From a virus (Duplodnaviria; Caudoviricetes), in the IMG/VR virus record IMGVR_UViG_3300020440_000021, positions 1-49,308 of that record: a DNA stretch of 49,308 nucleotides; one strand, given 5' to 3'. The translations under genes and the position numbers were made by a program. A model generated the notes under the pieces. The model was not told the origin of the DNA and did no database searches. It worked only from the letters and a program-made list of their open reading frames with translations. Below, one piece after another: positions 7,511 through 19,179 of the stretch. Numbering within the stretch: position 1 is the first letter of the stretch; every line of letters starts with the position of its first letter.

Positions 7511-8240
7511 ACTTTTAATAAGCTTATTATTTATAATGTCGACATCATTCGTTTTCGCACAAGCCACTGATGATAACGAAATTCTAATTCAACAATCAGG
7601 AGATACTTTAAAGTTATATATTGACCAAGTAGGATTTGGTAATAAAATAGGAGGTGACAACTTTTCAAGTGGTTCATCAAATATGACTATAACTGGTTCT
7701 TCTCTTGAATTTGACTTAGATTTTATCGGTAACTCAAATATTTTGTTTGGTCCAGTTATAGCTGATAGTTCATACTATAAGCTTGACTTTAATGGAGATT
7801 CAAACATAATAGATTGGAATATTGGTTACATTGGTAGCTCAGATAGCTCAAATTATAATTTTGATGTTACAGGAAGTTCTAATACTTTCGATATCGATCA
7901 AGGTTATGCAGTGAGCGCAGAACGTTTAGATGCTGACTTAGTATTAATTGGAAGCAGTAATGTTTTCGATATAGACTTTGAGTCAGATGATAATACATGG
8001 AATTTTGATATTACTGGAGCATCCAATAATATTAATACTTTGCAAAATGATGGTTCACAAACACTTAACTTTACTTTAGTAGGGGACAGTGCTGATGTTG
8101 ATATCAATCAAATATCAGGTACATGCGCATCAGGCGCAGGTTCTGGTTGTGCAACACCAAACGCGAGTATAAATTTAAATGTTACAAGCGATAACTCAAT
8201 CATTCAGATTAATCAGCAAGATTCATCTGGCGATTCTTAG
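7503..8240 (+). CDS. secreted curlin-like beta-solenoid repeat protein
   Basis: Sec signal ending VFA; about 8 imperfect repeats of the type x-h-x-h-x-h-x-G-x-S-N-x-h-x-h-x-(Q); directly downstream of csgG. Confidence 0.75.
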   Translation: MNKLLISLLFIMSTSFVFAQATDDNEILIQQSGDTLKLYIDQVGFGNKIGGDNFSSGSSNMTITGSSLEFDLDFIGNSNILFGPVIADSSYYKLDFNGDSNIIDWNIGYIGSSDSSNYNFDVTGSSNTFDIDQGYAVSAERLDADLVLIGSSNVFDIDFESDDNTWNFDITGASNNINTLQNDGSQTLNFTLVGDSADVDINQISGTCASGAGSGCATPNASINLNVTSDNSIIQINQQDSSGDS

Positions 8241-9333
8241 TTTATGTTTCATCAGTGGGGTTAGTTATGCTGACCCCATTGGCGATATAGTAGAAACTAC
8301 TGGAATTGGCCAAATAGTAAGAAATCAAAATGCTATTTCATCTTCAAATAATTTACCTATTGAATTATACGATACGGCTGAAACAAGCAATGGAAGAATT
8401 CTTATTGAATTCTTGGATAAAGCTGAACTTGCTCTTACTGAACATACACAAGTTTTTATAGACGAAGTCTATTACGATCCAGACCCAAGTAAATCTAAAA
8501 TGGCAATGAGATTTGCTATGGGCACAGCACGATTTGCTTCAGGTAAGAAAGCAATGATTAATAAAGCAAACATAGAACTTACCACACCAACAGCCACGAT
8601 TACAGTACGTGGTACAGATTTTACAACAACAGTCGACGAGCTTGGAAGATCGCTTGTTGTTCTTTTACCAGATGAATTTGGAGATGCTTCAGGAATTATT
8701 ACTGTCTCAAATGAAGCAGGAGAAGTTACTTTAGACCAGGCATATTCAGCAACAATGGTTTCAACTGTATCATCACCACCAACAAGTTCAGTTGTTATAG
8801 GAAATATTACTCCTTCAATGATTGATAATATGTTTATAGTCAATCCACCTACTGAAGTTAAACAAGCAATAGAAGAATCAGCAAGAGATGATGCTAATGA
8901 TGACCAAGGAATATTAGATGTAGATTTCTTAGAATTTAATGAATTAGAAACAGATGCTTTAAAAGATTCAGAAGAAGATTTAGAATTTAGCGAGCTTGAT
9001 ATTGATTTGCTTGATGTAGATTTTTTACAAGATTTATTGGATATTGTTGAGGAACTTGAAAGAACTACAATAAATTTAGCTGCAAGAGATAATGTATCTA
9101 TAGGTTCACTTACATTGCGAGGTGCTTCTGTAGGATTTAATAAAGATAGTCAGTTTAATATATTTGAACAAGATGGTGATATAGTTTTTTATCGTAACGT
9201 AAATGGTGTTATAAATATAATCATCGCCAATGGAAATAGTGGATTCATCGATAGTAGATTAGATGGATACGAAGGAATAATTACTTTTGGCTCGGGAGAA
9301 GGAATTGAAATATATATTAATCAGTCTAATTAG
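8179..9333 (+). CDS. secreted FecR-domain protein with acidic linker
   Basis: Signal peptide ending SYA; DTAETSNGRILIEFLD, GTARFASG, TPTATITVRGTDF, G.ITVSNEAG.VTL are FecR-family motifs. Confidence 0.85.
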   Translation: MLQAITQSFRLISKIHLAILSLCFISGVSYADPIGDIVETTGIGQIVRNQNAISSSNNLPIELYDTAETSNGRILIEFLDKAELALTEHTQVFIDEVYYDPDPSKSKMAMRFAMGTARFASGKKAMINKANIELTTPTATITVRGTDFTTTVDELGRSLVVLLPDEFGDASGIITVSNEAGEVTLDQAYSATMVSTVSSPPTSSVVIGNITPSMIDNMFIVNPPTEVKQAIEESARDDANDDQGILDVDFLEFNELETDALKDSEEDLEFSELDIDLLDVDFLQDLLDIVEELERTTINLAARDNVSIGSLTLRGASVGFNKDSQFNIFEQDGDIVFYRNVNGVINIIIANGNSGFIDSRLDGYEGIITFGSGEGIEIYINQSN

Positions 9334-9841
9334 TTTATTAACACTACCAGTTTTAGCTGATGATGACAATCAAATTAACATAACACAATTAGGTGGTGGA
9401 AATGCTGTTGAATTTAGAATTGATCAGTATGGCTATAAAAATATTTTTGATTTAGATTTAGATGGTCAAAATGCTTATATACGTTTTGTACAAAATGGTG
9501 GCAATAATACAGTTAATGCAAATATTCTAGGTAATAATAATCAAATTATTGGTCAACAATTTGGTGGTGATACTCATACTATTAATATTAATGGTAATAA
9601 TAATTTAGCAGGCACTTGGTACGGAACAAGTCAAAACAATAATATAGAAATTAATTTACTTGGAAATAATAATTTTGGAGCTGTAGAAGCAAGAGGCGTT
9701 GGTGGTCATGACATAACACTTAATCTTTCTAACGGCGGAAATGCACAACTTTGGATTGATATGCTTACACCTGATACTTTTACGTTTAGTCAAGACTGCG
9801 CAGTAACAAGCTGTGGCCAAGTTCGTATGACAAGACAGTGA
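9287..9841 (+). CDS. second secreted curlin-like repeat protein
   Basis: Signal peptide ending VLA; N/G/Q-rich repeats (IDQYGYKN, VQNGGNN, ILGNNN, INGNNN); C-terminal Cys pair. Confidence 0.75.
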   Translation: MAREKELKYILISLISLLTLPVLADDDNQINITQLGGGNAVEFRIDQYGYKNIFDLDLDGQNAYIRFVQNGGNNTVNANILGNNNQIIGQQFGGDTHTININGNNNLAGTWYGTSQNNNIEINLLGNNNFGAVEARGVGGHDITLNLSNGGNAQLWIDMLTPDTFTFSQDCAVTSCGQVRMTRQ

Positions 9842-11679
9842 AATATTTAACTACAATTTGGACAACACTTTTTTTATTAGTAATATTAGTAGGTGTACGA
9901 TTTCAAGACCCTTTTATTGTTGAGCAAATCAGACTCAATACTTTCGATCAATATATAAAATCTTTACCAGAAAAACCATCAAACGATGTTGTATTAATTA
10001 ATATTGGCGAGGAAGCTCTAGAAAAGTACGGCCAGTTTCCTTGGCCAAGACAAGAATATGCTCAAATGATTAATATGTTGAGAAATCATCAAGCGGGTAT
10101 TATTGGATTTACTATAATGTTTCCTGAAGAAGATCGATTTGGTGGTGATGAAACACTCGCATCTTGGATGGAAGGCAATGGAATAATTTTAGCTCAAGAT
10201 GCAGATGAATATGGTAGAAGCAAAAAAGCTCCATATGTTGGTCATGCAGTATTTGGAAAAGGCGATCCGTATGATTGGGCATACAAATATAAAGGACTTG
10301 TAACTAATATTGATATATTAGAAAATAGTGCTTGGGGAGCTGGTCTCACAAATGGAGCTCCAGAAATAGATAATATTACAAGAAGAATACCTTTATTATC
10401 TCAAATTAACAATCAACTCTATCCATCATTTGCATTAGAAACAGTACGAGCTTTTCAAGATAAAAAATCATATACAGTAAAAGTAAACGAAGGTGGTATT
10501 GAAGAAATTATATTACGTCCGTATCAAATTAAAACAGATCCTGATGGAAGTATTTGGTTAAAATGGAATGGTGTATTTGAACAATATGAATATGATAGAA
10601 TGGGAAAGGGTATACCAGAAAATTTAGAAGGTAAAACAGTTATAGTAGGTTTATCAGCTAAAGGATTGGGAGCTCAAATACCTACACCTGGAGGATTATT
10701 ATATCCACATGAATTACAAGCTAACGCATTACAGACAATATATTCTGATAAATCAATATCAAGACCATTATGGGGAGATTCTTTAGAGTTATTAGTTATA
10801 AGTTTAGTTGGCTTGCTGATTATACTTTCTGTTTATTACGCTCCAATCTGGCTGAGCTCTGTATTTTTCTTCTTCGCCGTTGCTGGATCTGCAAGCGGCG
10901 TTTGGTATGTCTGGAACGAATTTCAGATACTCCTCGACTTATCAGCTTCTCTAATAATATATATACTTTTATTCACCTCAGCGAGTTTCAATAATTTCTA
11001 TAAACAATTCGTTTTAAGACAACAAATTAAGAAACAATTTGGTACTTATGTATCACCTGATCTTGTAAAGCAATTACAAAAAGATCCATCACTCTTAAAA
11101 CTTGGTGGAGAAAGAAAAGAAATGACCTTTATGTTTATGGATATATGTGGATTTACTCCAATATCAGAACATTATAAAAATAATAATGACCCAGAAGGAT
11201 TAGTTACTCTTATAAATAATTATTTAGATACAATGACTAAAATCGTTTTAAAGAACGGTGGAACAATAGATAAATTTATGGGTGATTGTATCATGGCTTT
11301 TTGGAACGCACCTTTACCATGTAAAGACCATGCTGATAAAGCTGTACAAACATCACTTGAAATATGCGAGGCAGCAGATGAACTTATACAAGAGCTTGAG
11401 GACCAAGGTTTACCTAGGATTGATATTGGTATTGGCATCAACACCGGTACATGCATCGTTGGAAACATGGGCTCAGAATCTCGATTTGACTATTCCGTTA
11501 TCGGAGATGCCGTCAACCTCGGCGCTCGACTTGAAGGACAAACAAGAAATTATGATGGGATTCGAGTGTTGTTGGGACCAGAAACTTATCGAAGCTGTAA
11601 AGAAAGAGCATTTTCTGAAGTCGATAGAATACAAGTTAAAGGAAAATCCGAGAAAGTCACAATTTACACACCAATTTGA
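9838..11679 (+). CDS. CHASE2-domain class III adenylate/guanylate cyclase (membrane-bound)
   Basis: N-terminal TM, CHASE2 (GQFPWPR, FPEEDR, DNITRRIPL, YPSFALE), 3 TM helices, catalytic FMDICGFT, DKFMGDCIMAFW, GIGINTG, GDAVNLGARLE. Confidence 0.95.
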   Translation: MKYLTTIWTTLFLLVILVGVRFQDPFIVEQIRLNTFDQYIKSLPEKPSNDVVLINIGEEALEKYGQFPWPRQEYAQMINMLRNHQAGIIGFTIMFPEEDRFGGDETLASWMEGNGIILAQDADEYGRSKKAPYVGHAVFGKGDPYDWAYKYKGLVTNIDILENSAWGAGLTNGAPEIDNITRRIPLLSQINNQLYPSFALETVRAFQDKKSYTVKVNEGGIEEIILRPYQIKTDPDGSIWLKWNGVFEQYEYDRMGKGIPENLEGKTVIVGLSAKGLGAQIPTPGGLLYPHELQANALQTIYSDKSISRPLWGDSLELLVISLVGLLIILSVYYAPIWLSSVFFFFAVAGSASGVWYVWNEFQILLDLSASLIIYILLFTSASFNNFYKQFVLRQQIKKQFGTYVSPDLVKQLQKDPSLLKLGGERKEMTFMFMDICGFTPISEHYKNNNDPEGLVTLINNYLDTMTKIVLKNGGTIDKFMGDCIMAFWNAPLPCKDHADKAVQTSLEICEAADELIQELEDQGLPRIDIGIGINTGTCIVGNMGSESRFDYSVIGDAVNLGARLEGQTRNYDGIRVLLGPETYRSCKERAFSEVDRIQVKGKSEKVTIYTPI

Positions 11680-11992
11680 ATTTTATAATCCGCCTACAAA
11701 TAAGGATTGGGCAGCATTCGTTACACTTCAATTATTAGATGTATATACTACATATCGTGGTGTTAAATATGATTGTGTTGAAGAAGCAAATCCTCTATTT
11801 GGAAAAAGACCATCAATAGGAAAAATGTTAGCAGGAAAAGCTTTAATACTTGCTCCCGCAATAAAACTTGATTTAGAAAATGATAAACTTTCAAAAGCAT
11901 CATTACAGTCTACTAATAATTTTACTACAATTATTGTTCTTAATAACTATCATGTATTAAATAATGCAATTCAAAATTGTAATAAGATTTAA
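11378..11992 (+). CDS. hypothetical exported/membrane protein overlapping the cyclase 3' end
   Basis: GAGG 6 nt before ATG11378; signal-peptide-like MNLYKSLRTKVYLGLILVLASTPVHA; C-terminal LD.YTT...G....EEANPL motif. Start position is inferred. Confidence 0.6.
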   Translation: MNLYKSLRTKVYLGLILVLASTPVHASLETWAQNLDLTIPLSEMPSTSALDLKDKQEIMMGFECCWDQKLIEAVKKEHFLKSIEYKLKENPRKSQFTHQFEFYNPPTNKDWAAFVTLQLLDVYTTYRGVKYDCVEEANPLFGKRPSIGKMLAGKALILAPAIKLDLENDKLSKASLQSTNNFTTIIVLNNYHVLNNAIQNCNKI

Positions 11993-12044
11993 TCTTTTTA
12001 TAAAAAAATAATCTAAAAAAAACCCCTTTTTTTTCAAAAAACCG

Positions 12045-12073
12045 TTTACATTTACTCGAAACTGTGGTATAAT
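12045..12073 (+). promoter_or_regulatory. sigma70-type early promoter
   Basis: TTTACA 12045-12050, N17, TATAAT 12068-12073; GAAACTGTGG before the -10; upstream A/T tracts (UP-like). Confidence 0.88.
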
Positions 12074-12099
12074 AGTACTATAAAATGATAAGGAACAAA

Positions 12100-12552
12100 A
12101 TGAAAAACGTAATTTTTGACATCGATGGGACAATTGCAGATTGTAACCATAGAAGACATTTTATTACTGATGGTAATAATGATTGGGATTCATTCAGATC
12201 TCATACAAAATTCGATACACCTATTCAACATGTATGCGATATGGCAAAAATGCACGTTGCTGATGGTGATATTGTTATGTTTGTTTCTGCTAGAAATAAT
12301 TCAGAAAGAGATATTACTACTCAACAAATTCAAGAGTGGATTGGTATTGAAAATCCAGTTTTATTTATGAGACCTGATGGTGATTACAGAGCTGATGATG
12401 TTTTCAAAAAAGATGTTTTAGATATTTTAAGAGAACATATTGGTGGCGATCCAGATGTTGTATACGATGACAGAAATAGAGTTGTCGATATGTGGAAAGC
12501 AAATGGAATTAACGTAGTTCAAGTTGTTCCAAGAGACCAAGGAGATTTTTAA
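12100..12552 (+). CDS. HAD phosphatase resembling the 3'-phosphatase domain of T4 polynucleotide kinase (PseT)
   Basis: IFDIDGT, FVSAR, LFMRPDGDYRADDVFK, YDDRNRVVDMW; no kinase P-loop domain; AAGGA RBS before ATG12100. Confidence 0.85.
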   Translation: MKNVIFDIDGTIADCNHRRHFITDGNNDWDSFRSHTKFDTPIQHVCDMAKMHVADGDIVMFVSARNNSERDITTQQIQEWIGIENPVLFMRPDGDYRADDVFKKDVLDILREHIGGDPDVVYDDRNRVVDMWKANGINVVQVVPRDQGDF

Positions 12553-12692
12553 TGGTAGTAAGACCGGGACTCGTATATCCCTCCGGTAAACCGGCCACAA
12601 TAACAGATTACGACTGTGAAGTGGGAAGCTTACTAACTAGAGAGAGCTGGGAACAGCTGAAGAGTGATGGATCGAAAGCTCTCTCGTCTTTT
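12553..12692 (+). ncRNA. candidate structured RNA (unassigned)
   Basis: GC-rich island with nested pairings forming a four-way junction plus an 8-bp closing stem followed by a U-tract; see findings. Confidence 0.45.
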
Positions 12693-12735
12693 GTTACATT
12701 TATGTTACAGTTGTGTAAAATGTTTGTAAAAAGTG
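12692..12735 (+). repeat. four 11-bp-phased direct repeats (TGTTACA/TGTAAAA)
   Basis: TGTTACA at 12692 and 12703, TGTAAAA at 12714 and 12725, just upstream of a -35 box. Confidence 0.6.
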
Positions 12736-12745
12736 AAAATAATCC

Positions 12746-12774
12746 TTTACAACAGCTTGAAACTGTGGTATAAT
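12746..12774 (+). promoter_or_regulatory. sigma70-type early promoter
   Basis: TTTACA 12746-12751, N17, TATAAT 12769-12774; GAAACTGTGG before the -10. Confidence 0.88.
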
Positions 12775-12804
12775 ATACATATAATTTTTTGATAAGGAGT
12801 TAAA

Positions 12805-13299
12805 ATGCAAAAATTAGTAATTCAAACGCAATATCTCGAAAATTACGGGAGTTCAGAAAATCCATATATGAAGTTCAAAGGTGGTTCAACCTATGTAATG
12901 CATAATTGTGGCGATATTGAACCTAGGTCTAATGAACTAGTAACAGCTGTTGCTCGTGTAAAACCTTTCATTACTACTGATCTTGTTCAGTCAAATGGTG
13001 GTTGTGAAGAATACATCATTGATGTTGATATTGTTCCTCATAATAAAAAAGTTTGCGCAGATTGGGAAACTGTTACTGAATTTTATTTTGATTTAAAAGG
13101 CAATGCTCAATTCATGAAAGTTACAGACAATCGTGAAGATGGTTGGATGAAAAGCGAAATCTTGGAAAAAATTGAAACATGGACAAATGATAACGAAGAT
13201 TATAAAGCCGAGTATCAAATGGAAGACGGCGATTTCTGTGTTGGAGACGCTGAACTTCAAGAGTGGTTTAATAATAAAGGAGATTCTATAGCATGCTAA
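12805..13299 (+). CDS. conserved phage hypothetical protein (early)
   Basis: TAAGGAG RBS; KLVIQTQYLENYG...MKFKGG.TY N-terminal motif. Confidence 0.8.
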   Translation: MQKLVIQTQYLENYGSSENPYMKFKGGSTYVMHNCGDIEPRSNELVTAVARVKPFITTDLVQSNGGCEEYIIDVDIVPHNKKVCADWETVTEFYFDLKGNAQFMKVTDNREDGWMKSEILEKIETWTNDNEDYKAEYQMEDGDFCVGDAELQEWFNNKGDSIAC

Positions 13300-13466
13300 T
13301 AATGAATTTTACAAAACTTGATGGTACACATTATAACGTTAAAATGAATACAATGGCTCAAGTTTTTTGGTTGGCTGGATTCAAACAAAAAGCAATTGAT
13401 AAAGTTTTAAGCGATTATAATCTGTATGAATATGAATTTGAATTTAAAGGAGTGACTAATGGATAA
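13293..13466 (+). CDS. small hypothetical protein (57 aa, not in ORF track)
   Basis: AAGGAG RBS, ATG13293, MLIMNFTKLDGTHYNVK...KGVTNG, TAA 13464-13466; fills the gap between neighbours. Confidence 0.65.
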   Translation: MLIMNFTKLDGTHYNVKMNTMAQVFWLAGFKQKAIDKVLSDYNLYEYEFEFKGVTNG

Positions 13467-13827
13467 ATATTCTATCGAAGTAGAAGACGCACTACATCAA
13501 AGCGTCAACGGGACAAGTCTTAAAGGCTATGTATCAACAACTTACGATAAGCTTGTTGAACTTTTTGGTAAACCATCTCACACAGATGCTGATCCATATG
13601 AAAAAGTAAATATGGAATGGATTCTAAATATTAAAAAATATTTTATAGATGAAGATGGTGAAGAAGATTGGGACTACATATCTGCAACAATTTACAATTG
13701 GAAAACTGGTAGTGTACCAACTGATGAGTATGAATGGCATATTGGTGGTCATAACTATGAAGCAACCGATGCTATACAATATATTATTTCTAACAACATT
13801 AAAGCGGAGTATAACTACAATGACTAA
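13459..13827 (+). CDS. conserved phage hypothetical protein
   Basis: AAGGAG RBS; GTSLKGYV.TTYDKLVELFGKP, ATIYNWK, WHIGG motifs. Confidence 0.8.
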   Translation: MDKYSIEVEDALHQSVNGTSLKGYVSTTYDKLVELFGKPSHTDADPYEKVNMEWILNIKKYFIDEDGEEDWDYISATIYNWKTGSVPTDEYEWHIGGHNYEATDAIQYIISNNIKAEYNYND

Positions 13828-14137
13828 AAAAGTATCAAAGGCGCAGGCCGATAAAAACTTTAAAATGATTATGCAAATTTTGCAAGAAGAAAAGCAAAAA
13901 ATGCAAGAAGAAAAAGAATGGAAAGACACTGTTAAGCGTGTCTATTCTAAACCAAAACCTAATTATAATAAGCTTACAAAGTCTGTTAAAAAGGCTGCCG
14001 AGCATATGCCTGGTTCTGTAGATTTTAACTCTCCAGAAAATATGTACTATTCAGAAAAAAATACTCAAAAGTATTTACAAGGTACTTCATACTATGAAAC
14101 TTATTCAGCAATGAGGAGTCAAGATGACTGGGATTAA
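13820..14137 (+). CDS. hypothetical protein
   Basis: GGAG RBS before ATG13820 (MTKKVSKAQ...); the longer 13649 start overlaps the previous gene. Confidence 0.7.
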   Translation: MTKKVSKAQADKNFKMIMQILQEEKQKMQEEKEWKDTVKRVYSKPKPNYNKLTKSVKKAAEHMPGSVDFNSPENMYYSEKNTQKYLQGTSYYETYSAMRSQDDWD

Positions 14138-14288
14138 AGAACGAAGAGCTGAATCTCTGAGAAAAGCAATCGAAAGAGCAAAAGATCCTGACTTTAAAAT
14201 GTTATGGAGTTTAAAACTTAAAGAATTATATAAAGATACTCCGGAAGTATCTTTCAATCCATCATCTTGGTTAAGGGAGGCAAACTAA
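14124..14288 (+). CDS. small hypothetical protein (54 aa, not in ORF track)
   Basis: GAGGAG RBS, MTGIKERRAESLRKAIERAKDPDFKMLW..., TAATG coupling to the next gene. Confidence 0.7.
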   Translation: MTGIKERRAESLRKAIERAKDPDFKMLWSLKLKELYKDTPEVSFNPSSWLREAN

Positions 14289-14584
14289 TGACTGAATATA
14301 ATAATAAAGTTGATTTACAAAGACGTACACTTGCTGCAGAGGAATATAAAAATTCTATTACTGATATACATACTCATAGGATAAAATCTATGTGGTATGA
14401 AACTGAACAGACTAAAAAGCATACTGATACAAGTTCAGTATGTGATACAACGTATATGGACGGACGCATTGAAAGAGAAGTCTTAAATACTGGAGAAAAA
14501 TTTATTTTAGTTGAAGGTGCTAAGGGCGAAAAACTTGTTGGCATGATTGAAAGACATTTAGCAGATATGGGAAAAAATTTATAA
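14288..14584 (+). CDS. hypothetical protein
   Basis: GGAGG RBS before ATG14288 (MTEYNNKV...). Confidence 0.75.
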   Translation: MTEYNNKVDLQRRTLAAEEYKNSITDIHTHRIKSMWYETEQTKKHTDTSSVCDTTYMDGRIEREVLNTGEKFILVEGAKGEKLVGMIERHLADMGKNL

Positions 14585-14591
14585 AAAACCG

Positions 14592-14620
14592 TTTACATTT
14601 ATCTGAAACTGTGGTATAAT
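14592..14620 (+). promoter_or_regulatory. sigma70-type early promoter
   Basis: TTTACA 14592-14597, N17, TATAAT 14615-14620; near-copy of the 12045 promoter (AAAACCGTTTACATTTA....GAAACTGTGGTATAAT). Confidence 0.88.
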
Positions 14621-14627
14621 ATATAAT

Positions 14628-14759
14628 ATGAATAAAGCTAAAAGACGTCCAGTGAGTACGTTAACTCATACAACAAGAGAAGTTGCTATTGATTTCCTAA
14701 GATGGAGAGAAGAGCAAAAACAAAAGTCAATGATTGGACATAATGGAGGACCTAAATAA
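14628..14759 (+). CDS. small hypothetical protein (43 aa, probably leaderless; ends IGHNGGPK)
   Basis: ATG 7 nt after the -10 box; ORF ends in a TAATG overlap with the next gene. Confidence 0.65.
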   Translation: MNKAKRRPVSTLTHTTREVAIDFLRWREEQKQKSMIGHNGGPK

Positions 14760-15118
14760 TGGGAATGACTAATTTTTATATGGGATCATTACGATATGAT
14801 TACACTGGTAGGAAAAGGAAAAAACATGCAGCTAATCCTGTGCGTAAAAAGAAACCAGAGTTCAAACCTCAAAAACTCAAAGTCACTCCACAACTTCAAT
14901 CTTTAAGACAAGAACAAGCTAAACAATATAAATCTCTTATGGAAGAATATATGGCTAGTGGTACATATCATACAATCGCTGGTGATACAAGTAAAAAAGA
15001 ACCAATGAAATATACAGGAACATTAATTAAAGGTATAGCAACAATGCATAAATCTAATGCTATTCCAGTTATTAATGATGAGCAAGCAAAAGATATTGCA
15101 AGAATGAGGAGAGGTTAA
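14759..15118 (+). CDS. conserved T4-like phage hypothetical protein
   Basis: GGAGG RBS; YTGTLIKGIATMHKSNAIPV...AKDIARMRR C-terminal motif. Confidence 0.8.
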   Translation: MGMTNFYMGSLRYDYTGRKRKKHAANPVRKKKPEFKPQKLKVTPQLQSLRQEQAKQYKSLMEEYMASGTYHTIAGDTSKKEPMKYTGTLIKGIATMHKSNAIPVINDEQAKDIARMRRG

Positions 15119-15309
15119 TGGGAAACGATTATCATAGCACGTATGTTAGCGGCGATCGCCGAGCTGATTTGCTACAGGTCAAAGGAGAATGGGCTGTAGA
15201 TTATTTTGTAAATAATGTTTTTACAAAACAAGAAATTTATAAAGGTCATAGTAGACCATATGCTGAGAGAGCAGCTGAAAATTATGTCGATGGAGTTAAA
15301 GACATATAA
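15118..15309 (+). CDS. small hypothetical protein
   Basis: GAGGAGAGG RBS, TAATG coupling; HS..YAE.AAENYV.G motif. Confidence 0.75.
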   Translation: MGNDYHSTYVSGDRRADLLQVKGEWAVDYFVNNVFTKQEIYKGHSRPYAERAAENYVDGVKDI

Positions 15310-15314
15310 GTTTA

Positions 15315-15365
15315 TGGGGAAGGCACCAACATCAAACTCCTTATCATCGATAGGTGTCTTCCCCA
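15315..15365 (+). ncRNA. 13-bp GC-rich hairpin with 25-nt anti-Shine-Dalgarno loop (candidate antisense regulator)
   Basis: TGGGGAAGGCACC pairs with GGTGTCTTCCCCA. The loop contains AACTCCTTATCAT, the reverse complement of the leaders at 12790-12801 and 12085-12094. Confidence 0.6.
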
Positions 15366-15381
15366 ACCCAATGGAGAAAAA

Positions 15382-16521
15382 ATGGCAAAAGTAAAAAGAC
15401 GAGGACCTACAATTGAAGAAAAATATATAGGTGTTAAACCAGAGTATCATGGTGTTGAATTACCTGATGATGTGTATGAAAGAGAAAAAGAATGGAGAAA
15501 AGGTTCTCAATGGTTCTATTACTATCAAAATAATAAAAAAATGGAACAAACCATTATCGATTATTTAATAGGAGAACTGAATTGGAATAAAACACAAATA
15601 TCTAATCTGAAAAAAGTTCCAGCATGGAAATGGCGTTCAAGAAATTATCAAGGAATATGCATGCTCAATGCTGGTTGGACAGGCGAACCTCTTACTAGTA
15701 TTCTTTCAAAGATAAACGAAAGACTTGTTGAGTTTGAAGTTGAAGGTCAAGCAATTAAACAAGCTGAGCCTAAAGTTGAAAGAAAACCGGTTATTCCACC
15801 AGCAGAACTTACTCGTAGAAAAGTTTTAGAAACTATGTGGGGTGATTGGGATGAGATTATAATTGAAGGTCACTTTGATGAAGATTACACTCAAAAGTTT
15901 AATACTTACAGTAGATTTAAAGGTCATGGTTTAAAAGGTAATGCTATTAAATATTTTGAAGATTTATTAAAACGAGAATATGAAGTAATTAGTGATGCAT
16001 ATAATAAAACATGCGAACAAGCTGTTGAAGCATACTCTCATATTTCAAAAGGTAATAAACGTAAAATAATGAAGCAGTATGAAGATGCATTTGCTGACAT
16101 TGAAAGATTAAGAGATTCGTTTAAAGCTCAAAGAAAGCCAAGAGCGATTAAACCTAAAGCATCTGATAAACAAATTGAAAAACTTCAATATTGTAAAGAA
16201 GATGAAGATGCTAAACTAACATCAATCAATCCTATATTAATACCTAGGAAACATAAACTCTTTGTATATAATCGTAAGAATAAAAAGCTTATTGAATATA
16301 CATGCTCATCAGTAGATGGATTTATTGTTTCTGGTACCTCAATAAAGAATTTTGATGATACAAGTAGGCAGGCTACTTTAAGAAAACCTGATGTTGTTTT
16401 ACCTGATATTCTCAATCGAACTGAAAAACAGATCGATAAGATATGGGAAACATTGACAACAAAAATAGATAAACCCACAGGAAGAATTAATTCTGACTGT
16501 ATTTTAATGAGGACATTTTGA
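15382..16521 (+). CDS. conserved T4-like phage hypothetical protein
   Basis: 379-aa ORF with GGAG RBS; C-terminal SINP..I, LFVYN.K, VSGTSI.NFD, TLRKP, PTGRINSDCIL motifs. Confidence 0.8.
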   Translation: MAKVKRRGPTIEEKYIGVKPEYHGVELPDDVYEREKEWRKGSQWFYYYQNNKKMEQTIIDYLIGELNWNKTQISNLKKVPAWKWRSRNYQGICMLNAGWTGEPLTSILSKINERLVEFEVEGQAIKQAEPKVERKPVIPPAELTRRKVLETMWGDWDEIIIEGHFDEDYTQKFNTYSRFKGHGLKGNAIKYFEDLLKREYEVISDAYNKTCEQAVEAYSHISKGNKRKIMKQYEDAFADIERLRDSFKAQRKPRAIKPKASDKQIEKLQYCKEDEDAKLTSINPILIPRKHKLFVYNRKNKKLIEYTCSSVDGFIVSGTSIKNFDDTSRQATLRKPDVVLPDILNRTEKQIDKIWETLTTKIDKPTGRINSDCILMRTF

Positions 16522-17009
16522 TGAATAATTTGAGAAATATATTTTTCAAAAACTTACCAGATAAATCAATTACAGCATTTGACATTTTTGCAGAAAAAAG
16601 AGTGGTTGTATTTGGATTGCCTGGTGCATTTACCCCAACCTGTTCTTCACAACAAGTCCCTGGATTTGATAAACTCTATAAGAAAATCTGTAAAGAAAAT
16701 GTAGATGAAATTTATTGTATATCAGTGAATGATGGATTTGTGATGAAGGCTTGGTTTGAAAACCTTAAAGTAAAAAATGTTAAATATTTATCTGATGGAA
16801 GTGGAGACTTTACATCATTAATGGGTATGTTAGTTGCTAAAGATAATTTAGGCTTTGGAAAACGTTCATGGAGATATGCGGCTGTTATAAATGATGGCGA
16901 TGTCGAAAAAATGTTTGTAGAAAAAGGTCTTAAAGATAATTGCGAAACAGATCCATATGAAGAGTCAACTCCTGAGATGGTATTAGAATATTTAAAAAAT
17001 AATGACTGA
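16518..17009 (+). CDS. peroxiredoxin (Prx5/PRX5-like redoxin)
   Basis: VVVFGLPGAFTPTCS, CISVNDGFVMKAW, DGSGDFT, GFGKRSWRYA. Confidence 0.93.
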   Translation: MMNNLRNIFFKNLPDKSITAFDIFAEKRVVVFGLPGAFTPTCSSQQVPGFDKLYKKICKENVDEIYCISVNDGFVMKAWFENLKVKNVKYLSDGSGDFTSLMGMLVAKDNLGFGKRSWRYAAVINDGDVEKMFVEKGLKDNCETDPYEESTPEMVLEYLKNND

Positions 17010-17244
17010 TCCATTAGAGCAAAAGATTATGACAAGAAAAAGGTTCTCAGCAGCTGTTGAGAATCTAGTTGCTAATAATAATATGTCATATATCGATGCT
17101 GCTTCTTATGTTGTAGAAAAGAGAGGGCTTGATTATAGAAATATGAAAAAGCTTTTAAGTGATTCTCTTAAACAAAAAATAGAAGAAGAGGCATCAACAT
17201 TACATTTAATAAGAACTAAGAAAGGAAATAAGTTACCAGTATAA
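17002..17244 (+). CDS. gp33: late promoter transcription coactivator gp33
   Basis: F...VE.LV....MSYIDA...........LL..SLK.KI..EA..L pattern; canonical 33-59-32 synteny. Confidence 0.88.
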   Translation: MTDPLEQKIMTRKRFSAAVENLVANNNMSYIDAASYVVEKRGLDYRNMKKLLSDSLKQKIEEEASTLHLIRTKKGNKLPV

Positions 17245-17549
17245 TGGTTAAGTTCAAATATAAACCTTTACCTTCTTGCGTCACTATACGTGAAAGTGGT
17301 ATAGAAGGTTTAGGATTATTTGCAACTGAAATTATACATAAAAACGAAAACTTAGGATTAACGCACGTTGCAGTTAACGATAAAACATTAGTACGAACTC
17401 CACTTGGTGGATTTATAAATCATTCAGATTTTCCTAATTGTACATTGGTATCAAGTTGTAATGATGCAGTAAAAGAATTATTTACATTACGTAAGATTAA
17501 CAAAGACGAAGAATTGGTATTATACTATACATTAGAACAAGATGAGTGA
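17244..17549 (+). CDS. minimal SET-domain protein (putative lysine methyltransferase)
   Basis: S.IEGLGLFATE.I, GGFINHSDFPNC, LRKINKDEELVLYY are SET motifs I, III and IV. Confidence 0.88.
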   Translation: MVKFKYKPLPSCVTIRESGIEGLGLFATEIIHKNENLGLTHVAVNDKTLVRTPLGGFINHSDFPNCTLVSSCNDAVKELFTLRKINKDEELVLYYTLEQDE

Positions 17550-18132
17550 TCCATTTGAAACTTATAAATTATATAATGCTTTAAAATTGCATTTTGAAAC
17601 AGATTATGATGCGCTAAAATATAATTTTAAAACATCAGTAAAACCAACTTCTTTCTTTAAACGTAAAGATAAGTACTTCTTTGCTAAAATTGCTAAGACT
17701 TATGAAAAAGAACTTATTCCATTCTTTGTAGCAAATTTTAAGAATGATGCAAAGTATATCGGTGATATGCTTAATGAAGGTGGGGAACAACATTATCGAA
17801 AGCATAAAAAGATTAATGAAGCTATAACTTATCATTTTCAAAATGATATAAATAAACTTGTTGAACAAGATGATAGTATCGATAAGCTTTTAGTTGCCGA
17901 AGATAATAATCATCCTTTGATTATAAAATTATGGATGCAAGAAGAAATACTCTTAGAGACTATTGTAATCTTGGATTCATTAACCGGGTTTGTAGATAAA
18001 GAAAACGAAAAGATATCTGAAACAATTATTTGGCCAGACATCTATCGTAAGATTAAAAAATACAGCCCATTCGTTAAATTTGATAGAACTAAATGTTTAG
18101 ATTTATTGAAAAAAACGTTTACAAATCCATAG
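17542..18132 (+). CDS. gp59: helicase loader gp59
   Basis: YKLYNALKLHF..DYD..KY, F.KRKDKYFFAK, FFVANF, I.LET.VILD; position before gp32. Confidence 0.9.
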   Translation: MSDPFETYKLYNALKLHFETDYDALKYNFKTSVKPTSFFKRKDKYFFAKIAKTYEKELIPFFVANFKNDAKYIGDMLNEGGEQHYRKHKKINEAITYHFQNDINKLVEQDDSIDKLLVAEDNNHPLIIKLWMQEEILLETIVILDSLTGFVDKENEKISETIIWPDIYRKIKKYSPFVKFDRTKCLDLLKKTFTNP

Positions 18133-18146
18133 AAATATGGTATAAT
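18118..18146 (+). promoter_or_regulatory. sigma70-type promoter for gp32
   Basis: TTTACA 18118-18123, N17, TATAAT 18141-18146 with TGG extension. Confidence 0.82.
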
Positions 18147-18201
18147 ATATGTATTACATTATGAATAAAGTGGATAATTCAGCAAATATACGGAGAAAAA
18201 T

Positions 18202-19092
18202 ATGTCGCTAGAAAACTTAAAGAGCATGCGAGGCTCATCAATTGATAAACTCGTAAAGGCAGCGGAAGCTGTATCCACAGCAAAACCTGAAACAACTTCT
18301 TATGAAGATGACAGATTTTGGAAACCAACCAGAGATAAAGCAGGAAATGGCTATGCCGTTATCAGATTCTTGCCACAAAAAGAAGGTGAAGATCTTCCTT
18401 GGGTAAGATACTGGGATCACGGCTTTAAAGGTCCTACTGGTCTATGGTATATAGAAAACTCTTTAACCTCAATTGGTCAACCCGATCCAGTTTCGGAACA
18501 TAATTCGATTCTTTGGAACTCTGGTAGAGACGAGGATAAAGCTATCGCTAGGGAGCAAAAAAGACGTTTACATTATGTGAGTAATGTATTAGTTATTTCT
18601 GATCCTGATAATCCACAAAATGAAGGAAAAGTTTTCCTTTATAAATTTGGTAAGAAAATCTTTGACAAGATTATGGATGTTATGCAACCACAATTTGCCG
18701 ATGAAACTCCAGTAAATCCTTATGATTTCTGGGAAGGCGCTGATTTTAAATTAAAAATCAGAAAAGTTGAAGGTTGGGTTAACTATGATAAATCAGAGTT
18801 TTCTTCACCAGCATCTCTTTTTGATGGAGACGAATCTAGATTAACTGAAGTTTATGAAAAACTTTATTCACTTCAGGACTTTTTAGATCCAGCTAATTAT
18901 AAAACTTATGATGAGCTTAAAGTCAAACTCAATAGAGTATTAGGAGTTGATGCAGGTGTATCAATGGATGCTCCAGCTCCAGCACAAGTTGCTGAAGCTC
19001 CTGTCATGCAAACAGCAGAGCCAGTTGAAGAACAATCTTCAGATGAAGATGATACTCTCAGCTACTTTGCTAAATTAGCAAAAGAATCTTAA
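18202..19092 (+). CDS. gp32: single-stranded DNA-binding protein gp32
   Basis: DDRFWKPTRDKAGNGYAVIRFLP, WYIENSLT, NEGKVFLYKFGKKIFDKI, NYDKSEF, acidic tail DDTLSYFAKLA. Confidence 0.97.
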   Translation: MSLENLKSMRGSSIDKLVKAAEAVSTAKPETTSYEDDRFWKPTRDKAGNGYAVIRFLPQKEGEDLPWVRYWDHGFKGPTGLWYIENSLTSIGQPDPVSEHNSILWNSGRDEDKAIAREQKRRLHYVSNVLVISDPDNPQNEGKVFLYKFGKKIFDKIMDVMQPQFADETPVNPYDFWEGADFKLKIRKVEGWVNYDKSEFSSPASLFDGDESRLTEVYEKLYSLQDFLDPANYKTYDELKVKLNRVLGVDAGVSMDAPAPAQVAEAPVMQTAEPVEEQSSDEDDTLSYFAKLAKES

Positions 19093-19098
19093 TGATTG

Positions 19099-19179
19099 TA
19101 ACCAGTAGGAACGTATGGTTAAAACAGAGTCGATTGGCGTCCTTCCGCGGGACTTGGGGTAAGCCTACATAAACCCAGT
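19099..19179 (+). ncRNA. candidate structured RNA (three hairpins with possible kissing loop)
   Basis: GC-rich intergenic stretch after the gp32 stop; see findings. Strand uncertain. Confidence 0.4.

Follow-up and report, generated by a model that had tools for sequence, protein, structure and literature searches.

The hairpin described here, which is kept by a family of uncultured marine T4-like phages, may bear on how T4-like phages that lack RegB turn down their early genes. In T4, RegB is a protein endoribonuclease that requires S1 (PMC3014915, in the passages available). The DNA that we analysed, a stretch of 49,308 nt referred to below as the window, is part of a T4-like phage genome (G000, about 30% complete), and the sequencing runs containing its DNA are of marine origin. 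A preliminary description had singled out a hairpin whose loop is complementary to the ribosome-binding leaders of two early genes, and had proposed that it is a trans-acting small RNA. Judged by sequence comparison, the hairpin is a real, conserved and uncatalogued phage RNA with a well-supported target class and a predicted regulatory effect; it probably lets the phage turn tagged early genes down by base-pairing. It also makes a compact candidate: the RNA is 51 nt long, the tag measures 8-12 nt, and compensatory variants occur in nature.

Structure and setting of the hairpin

The hairpin lies in the following neighbourhood.

15118..15309, + strand: gene for a 63-aa protein with no assigned function; its stop codon lies 5 nt 5′ of the hairpin stem
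15309..15313, + strand: RNWUU word, A/U-rich, following the upstream stop codon and preceding the stem; a candidate site for RNase E-type processing
15315..15365, + strand: hairpin RNA, 13-bp stem and 25-nt loop
15336..15346, + strand: conserved loop core ACUCCUUAUCA, putative anti-leader seed; columns 90-100% conserved in 91 unique elements
15382..16521, + strand: 379-aa gene (phrog_11903), no assigned function, conserved syntenic neighbour of the hairpin
Order 3′ of the hairpin: 379-aa gene, peroxiredoxin, late transcription regulator (gp33-like), helicase loader, ssDNA-binding protein
Order 5′ of the hairpin: small uncharacterised genes and a PNK-like gene

The stem (15315-27 with 15353-65, 13 bp including one G-U) is present as first described, and the 25-nt loop and the lack of a U-tract in the window agree with the claim that it is not a terminator. 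Its folding energy is -23.6 kcal/mol (z -5.8), a value equalled by none of 200 shuffles. Both complementarities claimed for the loop proved exact: 15335-46 is the reverse complement of 12790-12801, and 15338-47 that of 12085-94. The word TGATAAGGA occurs three times in the window, at the two leaders and the loop, where 0.73 occurrences are expected and 2 of 100 shuffles reach three. The word at 15309..15313 follows the RNase E-type consensus, and its role in processing is putative; among relatives, 64 of 91 elements have RNWTT in the 14 nt that precede the stem, compared with a mean of 39 and a maximum of 52 after shuffling.

The covariance models of Rfam 15, which we take to include those for cuckoo and C4, gave no match at gathering score in the window and none over 15315-65 at E values up to 10. 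Seventeen RNA runs contain part of 11900-19100. The four inspected were all assembled contigs; none of the 32 contig pieces listed covers 15315-65, and two runs have some depth in that bin. Because these runs are assembled contigs whose pieces are only partly listed, they have no bearing on expression either way.

Conservation, co-variation and strand

Relatives were gathered with the 379-aa gene as bait. A hairpin was found within 700 nt 5′ of this gene in 146 of 163 loci (93 unique), and 91 unique elements were left once L149 and L158 had been dropped as spurious hairpin calls. Loci with the element have one motif hairpin each; in L174 it lies about 1 kb upstream. Of the first set, 11 of the 17 loci without one are at contig edges, and 54 of 64 further, more distant loci have it as well. 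The preliminary description had suggested looking in relatives for a co-varying stem around a constant loop, and this expectation was borne out. Left arms occur in 76 different versions among the 91 elements, against 90-100% conservation in 11 loop columns. When 28 elements from related clades were aligned by sequence only (MAFFT, no structure fitting), 99.7% of the stem cells paired and 10 of the 11 pairs varied on both sides; this paired fraction was reached by none of 500 shuffles, and slid controls gave 27-51%. The median loop among relatives is 26 nt, and in some lineages an additional hairpin is inserted 5′ of the loop core, which remains unpaired. A model of the element, R1, scores the window because the window was used to train it.

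The strand can be read from the stem positions that are not Watson-Crick, which on the + strand comprise 125 G-U and 17 C-A; this asymmetry indicates the + strand. The outcome that had been named as damaging to the RNA reading, a ribosome-binding site of a minus-strand gene, was not what we found: an ATG at 4-12 nt behind the Shine-Dalgarno (SD)-like motif is missing from 60 of the 91 elements, and a minus-strand ORF of at least 30 aa is present in just 5. Comparison among relatives shows a hairpin selected as a + strand RNA with a single-stranded ACUCCUUAUCA loop. It has features of a trans-acting, 3′-end-derived small RNA, namely a conserved single-stranded seed, a co-varying structure and complementarity to the initiation regions of several unrelated mRNAs (16 protein families).

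The stem usually starts 0-12 nt 3′ of the stop codon of the upstream gene, and this gene varies among relatives. As a promoter separates the hairpin from the 379-aa gene in 46 of 91 elements, the hairpin is part of the 3′ end of the upstream unit, and we rejected the idea that it is a 5′ UTR of the 379-aa gene. A pseudoknot with the SD of the next gene was also rejected (complement of 4 nt or less in 24 of 36).

No hairpin is found near the 379-aa gene in L185, L186, L156, L162, L145 and L231, of which L185, L156 and L162 still have TGATAAGGA leaders. About 60-120 nt 5′ of this gene in L146 and L148, the stem is kept and the loop is degenerate or carries a 3-nt insertion; both retain a TGATAAGGAA leader despite the altered loop. 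In a further set of loci (L004, L006-L011, L121, L125 and others) a gap of 8-25 nt separates the hairpin from the start of the 379-aa gene, which has no SD. Such starts look like the short leaders of promoter-proximal genes, and cleavage at the 3′ foot of the hairpin would yield a short leader of this kind. By eye, L154 has a tRNA-like sequence between promoter and gene, about 60-130 nt 5′ of the 379-aa gene.

Tagged leaders behind early-type promoters

Sigma70-type promoters of the form TTTACA-N14-TGGTATAAT occur five times in the window, against 0.61 expected. We call them early in keeping with general knowledge of T4-like phages. Those relevant here, with their leaders, are listed below.

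12045..12073, + strand: early-type promoter of the PNK-like gene
12085..12094, + strand: tagged site ATGATAAGGA of the PNK-like gene; ribosome-binding site of the 12100 start, or the start codon itself
12746..12774, + strand: early-type promoter of gene 12805
12790..12801, + strand: tagged leader TGATAAGGAGTT of gene 12805 (164 aa, no assigned function)
14592..14620, + strand: sigma70-type (early-type) promoter, nearest source of a transcript through the hairpin

Both proposed targets do lie 3′ of a promoter of this form. The leader of gene 12805 is the best predicted target, pairing over 12 bp at -17.5 kcal/mol and ranking first of 44 by duplex energy; the 12085..12094 site pairs over 10 bp at -13.3 kcal/mol, and gene 12100 ranks fourth. 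That the latter site belongs to an initiation region stands, whereas its assignment as the ribosome-binding site of gene 12100 is less certain: it may instead be the start codon of the PNK-like ORF (12085-12552), and, bearing on where the PNK-like gene starts, the relatives L113 and L070 have no second ATG in the stretch printed. The shorter match claimed at the 13459 ribosome-binding site turned out to be ordinary, 11th of 44 by duplex energy. Among 78 SD-bearing + strand ATG leaders, only two have perfect complements of at least 10 nt (12 and 10), and the next best has 8. The first gene of the 14592 promoter has a short leader and no SD, which places the promoter of the hairpin itself in the untagged or short-leader class.

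The preliminary description had proposed that the leader motif should be enriched behind early promoters, and the enrichment is strong. Across the 91 loci (960 kb, with regex-based gene and promoter calls), TGATAAGGA stands in 32 of 157 leaders of genes that come first behind an early promoter and in 15 of 1020 others. Counted by protein family, the tag GAUAAGGA is present in 16 of 24 early-first families versus 1 of 115 others, and this lone exception lies behind a promoter-like sequence. Five long records gave the same picture, with 16 of 33 early AGGA leaders tagged versus 3 of 242 others, two of these three also behind promoter-like sequence. By this comparison, GAUAAGGA(G) is a tag nearly restricted to the first genes behind early-type promoters. 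It is positioned about 5-25 nt 3′ of the -10 box and is nearly missing at internal and late genes. Early-first genes stand at the head of their transcript with no ORF before them, so the TGA/TAA within the tag is not a stop codon. The early-promoter leaders fall into a tagged class (40/157) and an untagged class (117/157) that includes very short leaders (33/157 of 12 nt or less). A 43-aa gene family that comes first in the hairpin's own operon in some relatives is tagged in five of six cases.

In nine loci (L033, L035, L036, L047, L048, L051, L056, L065 and L114) TGATAAGGAA also occurs in the spacer of the promoter directly 3′ of the hairpin. The loop might pair with this spacer when both stand on one read-through transcript, so that the precursor would mask itself.

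A second loop copy inside uvsX

In the same clade, a hairpin with the same ACUCCUUAU loop was found within the uvsX reading frame.

L163:8480-8540 (G001): uvsX hairpin
L170:10401-10457 (G002), minus strand: uvsX hairpin
L330:16035-16091 (G006), minus strand: uvsX hairpin

As the copy sits within uvsX, its reading as a second intergenic hairpin was rejected. The loop is encoded by Thr-Pro-Tyr-Leu codons; matches of model R1 in uvsX are weak (E 0.44-0.99), and no second copy was found within the 49,308-nt window. We scored 68 uvsX genes from 80 loci (L247-L326), excluding duplicates and genes containing N. In the 40 genes with ACT CCT TAT, the surrounding 69 nt gave a mean folding z of -3.4 against synonymous shuffles, with 35 of 40 below -2, compared with -0.7 in the 28 genes with other codons and -0.4 in random windows. 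One third-position pair of the hairpin alternates between A-U and G-C. An anti-SD loop is apparently under selection inside uvsX, a core recombination gene, where such words are reportedly avoided. Leaders with both promoter and tag are present in 7 of 15 records with the uvsX loop and 0 of 14 without it, a co-occurrence that may be one clade effect.

Immediately 5′ of uvsX in G001 lies a gene for a phage ribosomal protein S21 (L163:7709-7963), with equivalents in G002, G003, G004 and G006. It is the first gene behind an early-type promoter and its leader is untagged.

Variation of loop and leader

Whether loop and leader change together, another check proposed in advance, received a mixed answer: concerted cases were found in a few lineages, but the contrasts were not significant and counter-cases exist. 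In L140 the loop contains UUACG and goes with three UGUAAGGAGUG leaders, and in its sisters L175 and L177 the loop U is retained and pairs with the same leader G by wobble. A CACUCC loop is paired with GGAGUG leaders in two lineages, the L140/L175/L177 clade and L154. L224 combines a CCUUUUC loop with a AAAAAGGAG leader, and in G006, where the loop reads AUCCUUAUCA, the C opposite the second G is lost and the tagged leaders have GGAA or GGAU. The counter-cases comprise L043, with an altered loop and an unchanged leader; L093 and L106, where a variant loop accompanies a canonical leader; L076, L081 and L206, which have C at -1 without GGAGUG leaders; and several phages in which GGAA leaders opposite a loop C create a mismatch.

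A permutation test on 59 loops and 160 leaders gave an excess of own-loop/own-leader matches at positions -1, 7 and 8, with p values of 0.001, 0.006 and 0.03 that are uncorrected and treat kin which are not independent; p fell below 0.05 at just 3 of 23 positions, none of them in the 3′ flank. Tree contrasts (FastTree, 68 rows) rested on 3, 4 and 8 independent pairs and gave median p values of 0.5-0.6, the pairs being too few for significance. As the CUCCUUA core is a plain anti-SD, part of the loop/leader match is expected.

The 379-aa gene provides a further comparison. Where it starts within 30 nt of the hairpin with no promoter between, at least 7 loop-complementary bases are found in 9 of 36 loci, and where it has its own promoter they are found in 37 of 46. 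Low leader complementarity of the co-transcribed gene fits avoidance of silencing in cis, with the caveat that kin are not independent. G005 (177 kb) has the 379-aa gene, and the hairpin, the uvsX loop and tagged leaders are all absent from it.

Proposed mechanism and alternatives

We regard it as moderately probable that the hairpin is an anti-SD RNA whose level rises through the early phase and which keeps tagged early mRNAs from being translated, acting mainly in trans. Lying at the 3′ end of the early block, the RNA would be made both by transcripts that start at the 14592 promoter and by read-through. Two cuts, one at the A/U-rich site that follows the stop codon and one at the stem's 3′ foot, would trim it to a stable RNA of about 50-60 nt; alternatively, the hairpin may act as the 3′ end of a longer transcript. 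Owing to its stable stem the RNA would accumulate, and its loop would form 9-12 nt of pairing across the SD on tagged early mRNAs, for the most part in trans, blocking 30S binding and probably also hastening mRNA decay. Early genes with a short leader or none, and the gp32 leader, would escape. The predicted outcome is a delayed shut-down of one class of early proteins, which is RegB's task in T4. The uvsX loop copy may contribute to it, and pairing in cis may add to it for the local operon. The 14592 promoter and the target promoters share one class, so any timing would be a delay by accumulation, with no separate middle stage.

The proposal of a trans-acting RNA in the preliminary description is partly upheld, by the conserved loop, the enriched leaders and the lack of a minus-strand ribosome-binding site. 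Many tagged leaders lie far from either hairpin, tens of kb from the intergenic one, and would need action in trans; operons that are distant from the hairpin and have none downstream contain three such leaders in G002, four in G003 and three in G006. A search for the RegB family (PF10715) gave no match in four partial genomes (56-86% complete), with the T4 positive control matched, but G005 is also without a match, so the absence of RegB says little. More tentatively, and with some doubt on our part, a lytic-type phage may run a protein-free RNA circuit of address and silencing, in which a private ribosome-binding tag is met by complementary loops encoded twice, in the 3′-end hairpin and at synonymous sites of uvsX, and early progress shuts the tagged regulon.

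It is unlikely, though still worth weighing, that pairing takes place in cis only, in the manner of icaR, with the hairpin at the 3′ end of a long early transcript folding back onto the SD of the first gene and stopping its translation once the hairpin has been transcribed. Such an arrangement of motif and SD on one mRNA is possible for gene 12805, with no + strand terminator called between 12746 and 15315, and for the largely tagged 43-aa family at the head of the operon, and repression by anti-SD pairing over long distances is described for B. subtilis (PMC12697547) and for icaR of S. aureus (PMC3868564). It is not possible for the distant tagged leaders of G002, G003 and G006; moreover, a hairpin with a U-run at about 12660-12697 may terminate the 12045 transcript, and pairing with the SD of the next gene is not conserved.

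The effect could also run in the reverse direction, with leaders binding the loop and altering the fate of the hairpin RNA (its cleavage, read-through, or uvsX and 379-aa gene expression), or with pairing that stabilises or activates early mRNAs. Direction is not given by sequence alone, a loop copy in the uvsX frame would be an odd source for a free small RNA, and the two hairpins are located within or ahead of genes that belong to the replication and recombination block. We nevertheless consider this improbable: the co-transcribed downstream gene avoids complementarity, and a duplex of 10-12 bp over the whole SD should by itself exclude the 30S subunit.

There is similarly little probability that the loop is a generic anti-SD sponge, mimicking the 3′ end of 16S RNA and dampening host mRNAs and any mRNA with a strong SD, with the phage tag secondary. 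CUCCUUA is the usual anti-SD; the loop core is far more conserved than the leaders, and in some relatives with the loop the available stretch shows few tagged leaders. Against a sponge, the bases by which the conserved core is extended, UCA and A, agree with the phage leaders but not with the usual 16S end, and loop variants track their own leaders in L140, L224 and G006.

A slim chance remains with readings that do without RNA-RNA pairing, in which GATAAGGA is a protein-binding site (an operator or the site of an RNA-binding repressor) or simply an extended SD of high strength, and the hairpin serves separately in RNA processing or stability. The location of the tag close behind the -10 box is operator-like, the tag recurs in the promoter spacer 3′ of the hairpin (one clade, nine contexts), and it survives in phages without the intergenic hairpin. 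These readings leave unexplained why tag and + strand loop are exactly complementary, the change from wobble to Watson-Crick pairing in L140 and the co-occurrence of tag and uvsX loop, and the near absence of the tag from internal and late genes also speaks against them. An ordinary feature, either a large-loop terminator (a T-rich tail of at least 5 T within 8 nt 3′ of the stem is present in 36 of 91 elements) or the ribosome-binding site of a minus-strand ORF (a short ATG ORF lies behind the motif in 26 of 91), is largely refuted as the sole function and very improbable in view of the large loop, the window's missing U-tract, the many elements with no minus-strand ATG, the G-U bias to the + strand and a constant loop that neither would explain, while an added termination role in some relatives is possible.

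Comparison with known systems

With the silencing RNA as our preferred reading, its nearest functional counterpart would be T4 RegB, whose job the hairpin would do; one is a protein nuclease (PMC3014915, in part) and the other a proposed RNA loop with the extended GAUAAGGA tag as its address, an RNA counterpart that we propose from sequence. Among the RNAs, the cuckoo / RSs0680 small RNAs of Alphaproteobacteria resemble it in having variable, co-varying stems and a fixed anti-SD loop (PMC4615179), and single-stranded anti-SD motifs of AbcR1 act on many mRNAs (PMC4152367). As far as the passages available describe, cuckoo RNAs have 2-4 adjacent hairpins with CCUCCUCCC and reside in bacterial genomes, whereas the phage element is one large-loop hairpin with ACUCCUUAUCA, in a lytic-type phage and matched to that phage's own early leaders; neither the CCUCCUCCC loop motif nor 2-4 adjacent hairpins were found in it.

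In icaR of S. aureus a 3′-UTR anti-SD motif pairs with the SD of the 5′ UTR and represses (PMC3868564), and long-range anti-SD folding represses in B. subtilis, with anti-SD words reportedly depleted from coding sequence (PMC12697547). What they share with the phage hairpin is an anti-SD motif that lies within a coding region or 3′ of one and is complementary to an SD. In the parts of these papers available, however, the pairing acts within one mRNA, whereas the phage hairpin would have many and often distant targets, and its uvsX copy is apparently kept. The loops of the P1/P7 C4 antisense RNA prevent translation of a phage mRNA by pairing around its ribosome-binding site (PMC12197685); C4 serves temperate phage immunity and one antirepressor message, while the phage hairpin is matched to many unrelated early genes and has no Rfam match. 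The phage small RNAs covered in the available part of that review come mostly from temperate phages.

The tag is most like the start-associated sequences known from cluster K mycobacteriophages. These form a repeat, specific to the phages, that sits at ribosome-binding sites of non-structural genes and has bases conserved beyond 16S pairing; some genomes have one reversed copy, and the authors left the function open (PMC3203893). Both are repeats at ribosome-binding sites, differing in sequence, phage and host. No partner RNA is proposed in the passages of PMC3203893 available, while the tag has a candidate partner with co-varying structure, which suggests a partner-RNA explanation for such unexplained repeats in other phages.

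The hairpin belongs to none of these systems: it has no Rfam match, a different loop and a single hairpin. A literature search, conducted largely without subscription papers, found no description of the element, and nothing relevant was found in the available parts of PMC5737381 and bioRxiv 10.64898/2026.09.22.753630. The motif was not found in six supplement files of PMC10690425 (10,000 viral RNA candidates); as this supplement was covered in part, files 1, 2 and 4 excepted, the hairpin may be an unnamed candidate there.

Other features of the locus

The 379-aa gene is widespread in T4-like phages (1236 matches), with distant relatives in Pseudomonas, Sinorhizobium, Caulobacter and Stenotrophomonas phages. 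Three MAG contigs, from one Gammaproteobacteria bin and one Rhodobacteraceae bin, also hold it and are probably misbinned phage DNA; the genomes of these bins yielded no usable 16S 3′ end for a host comparison. We examined its product through fold matches as a candidate RNA-binding partner of the hairpin. The model (pLDDT 84, pTM 0.38) had no PDB match at E 0.001 and no match in the Atlas, and matched only uncharacterised or unnamed viral proteins.

By eye, the ORFs at 8179-11679 of the window resemble FecR-type, curlin-like and CHASE2-adenylate cyclase proteins. Between the PNK-like gene and the promoter at 12746 lies a GC-rich, multi-stem intergenic element (12553-12700, + strand) that ends in a large-loop hairpin with a U-run. 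It has no credible Rfam match, and copies 84-92% identical occur in L227, L092, L209 and L134; we regard it as a candidate second non-coding RNA. Finally, the leader of the ssDNA-binding protein gene (18155-18200, + strand) contains a strongly conserved word (ATG..TAAAGTGGATAATTCA), with an early-type promoter 5′ of it in most relatives, and is a candidate autoregulatory site.
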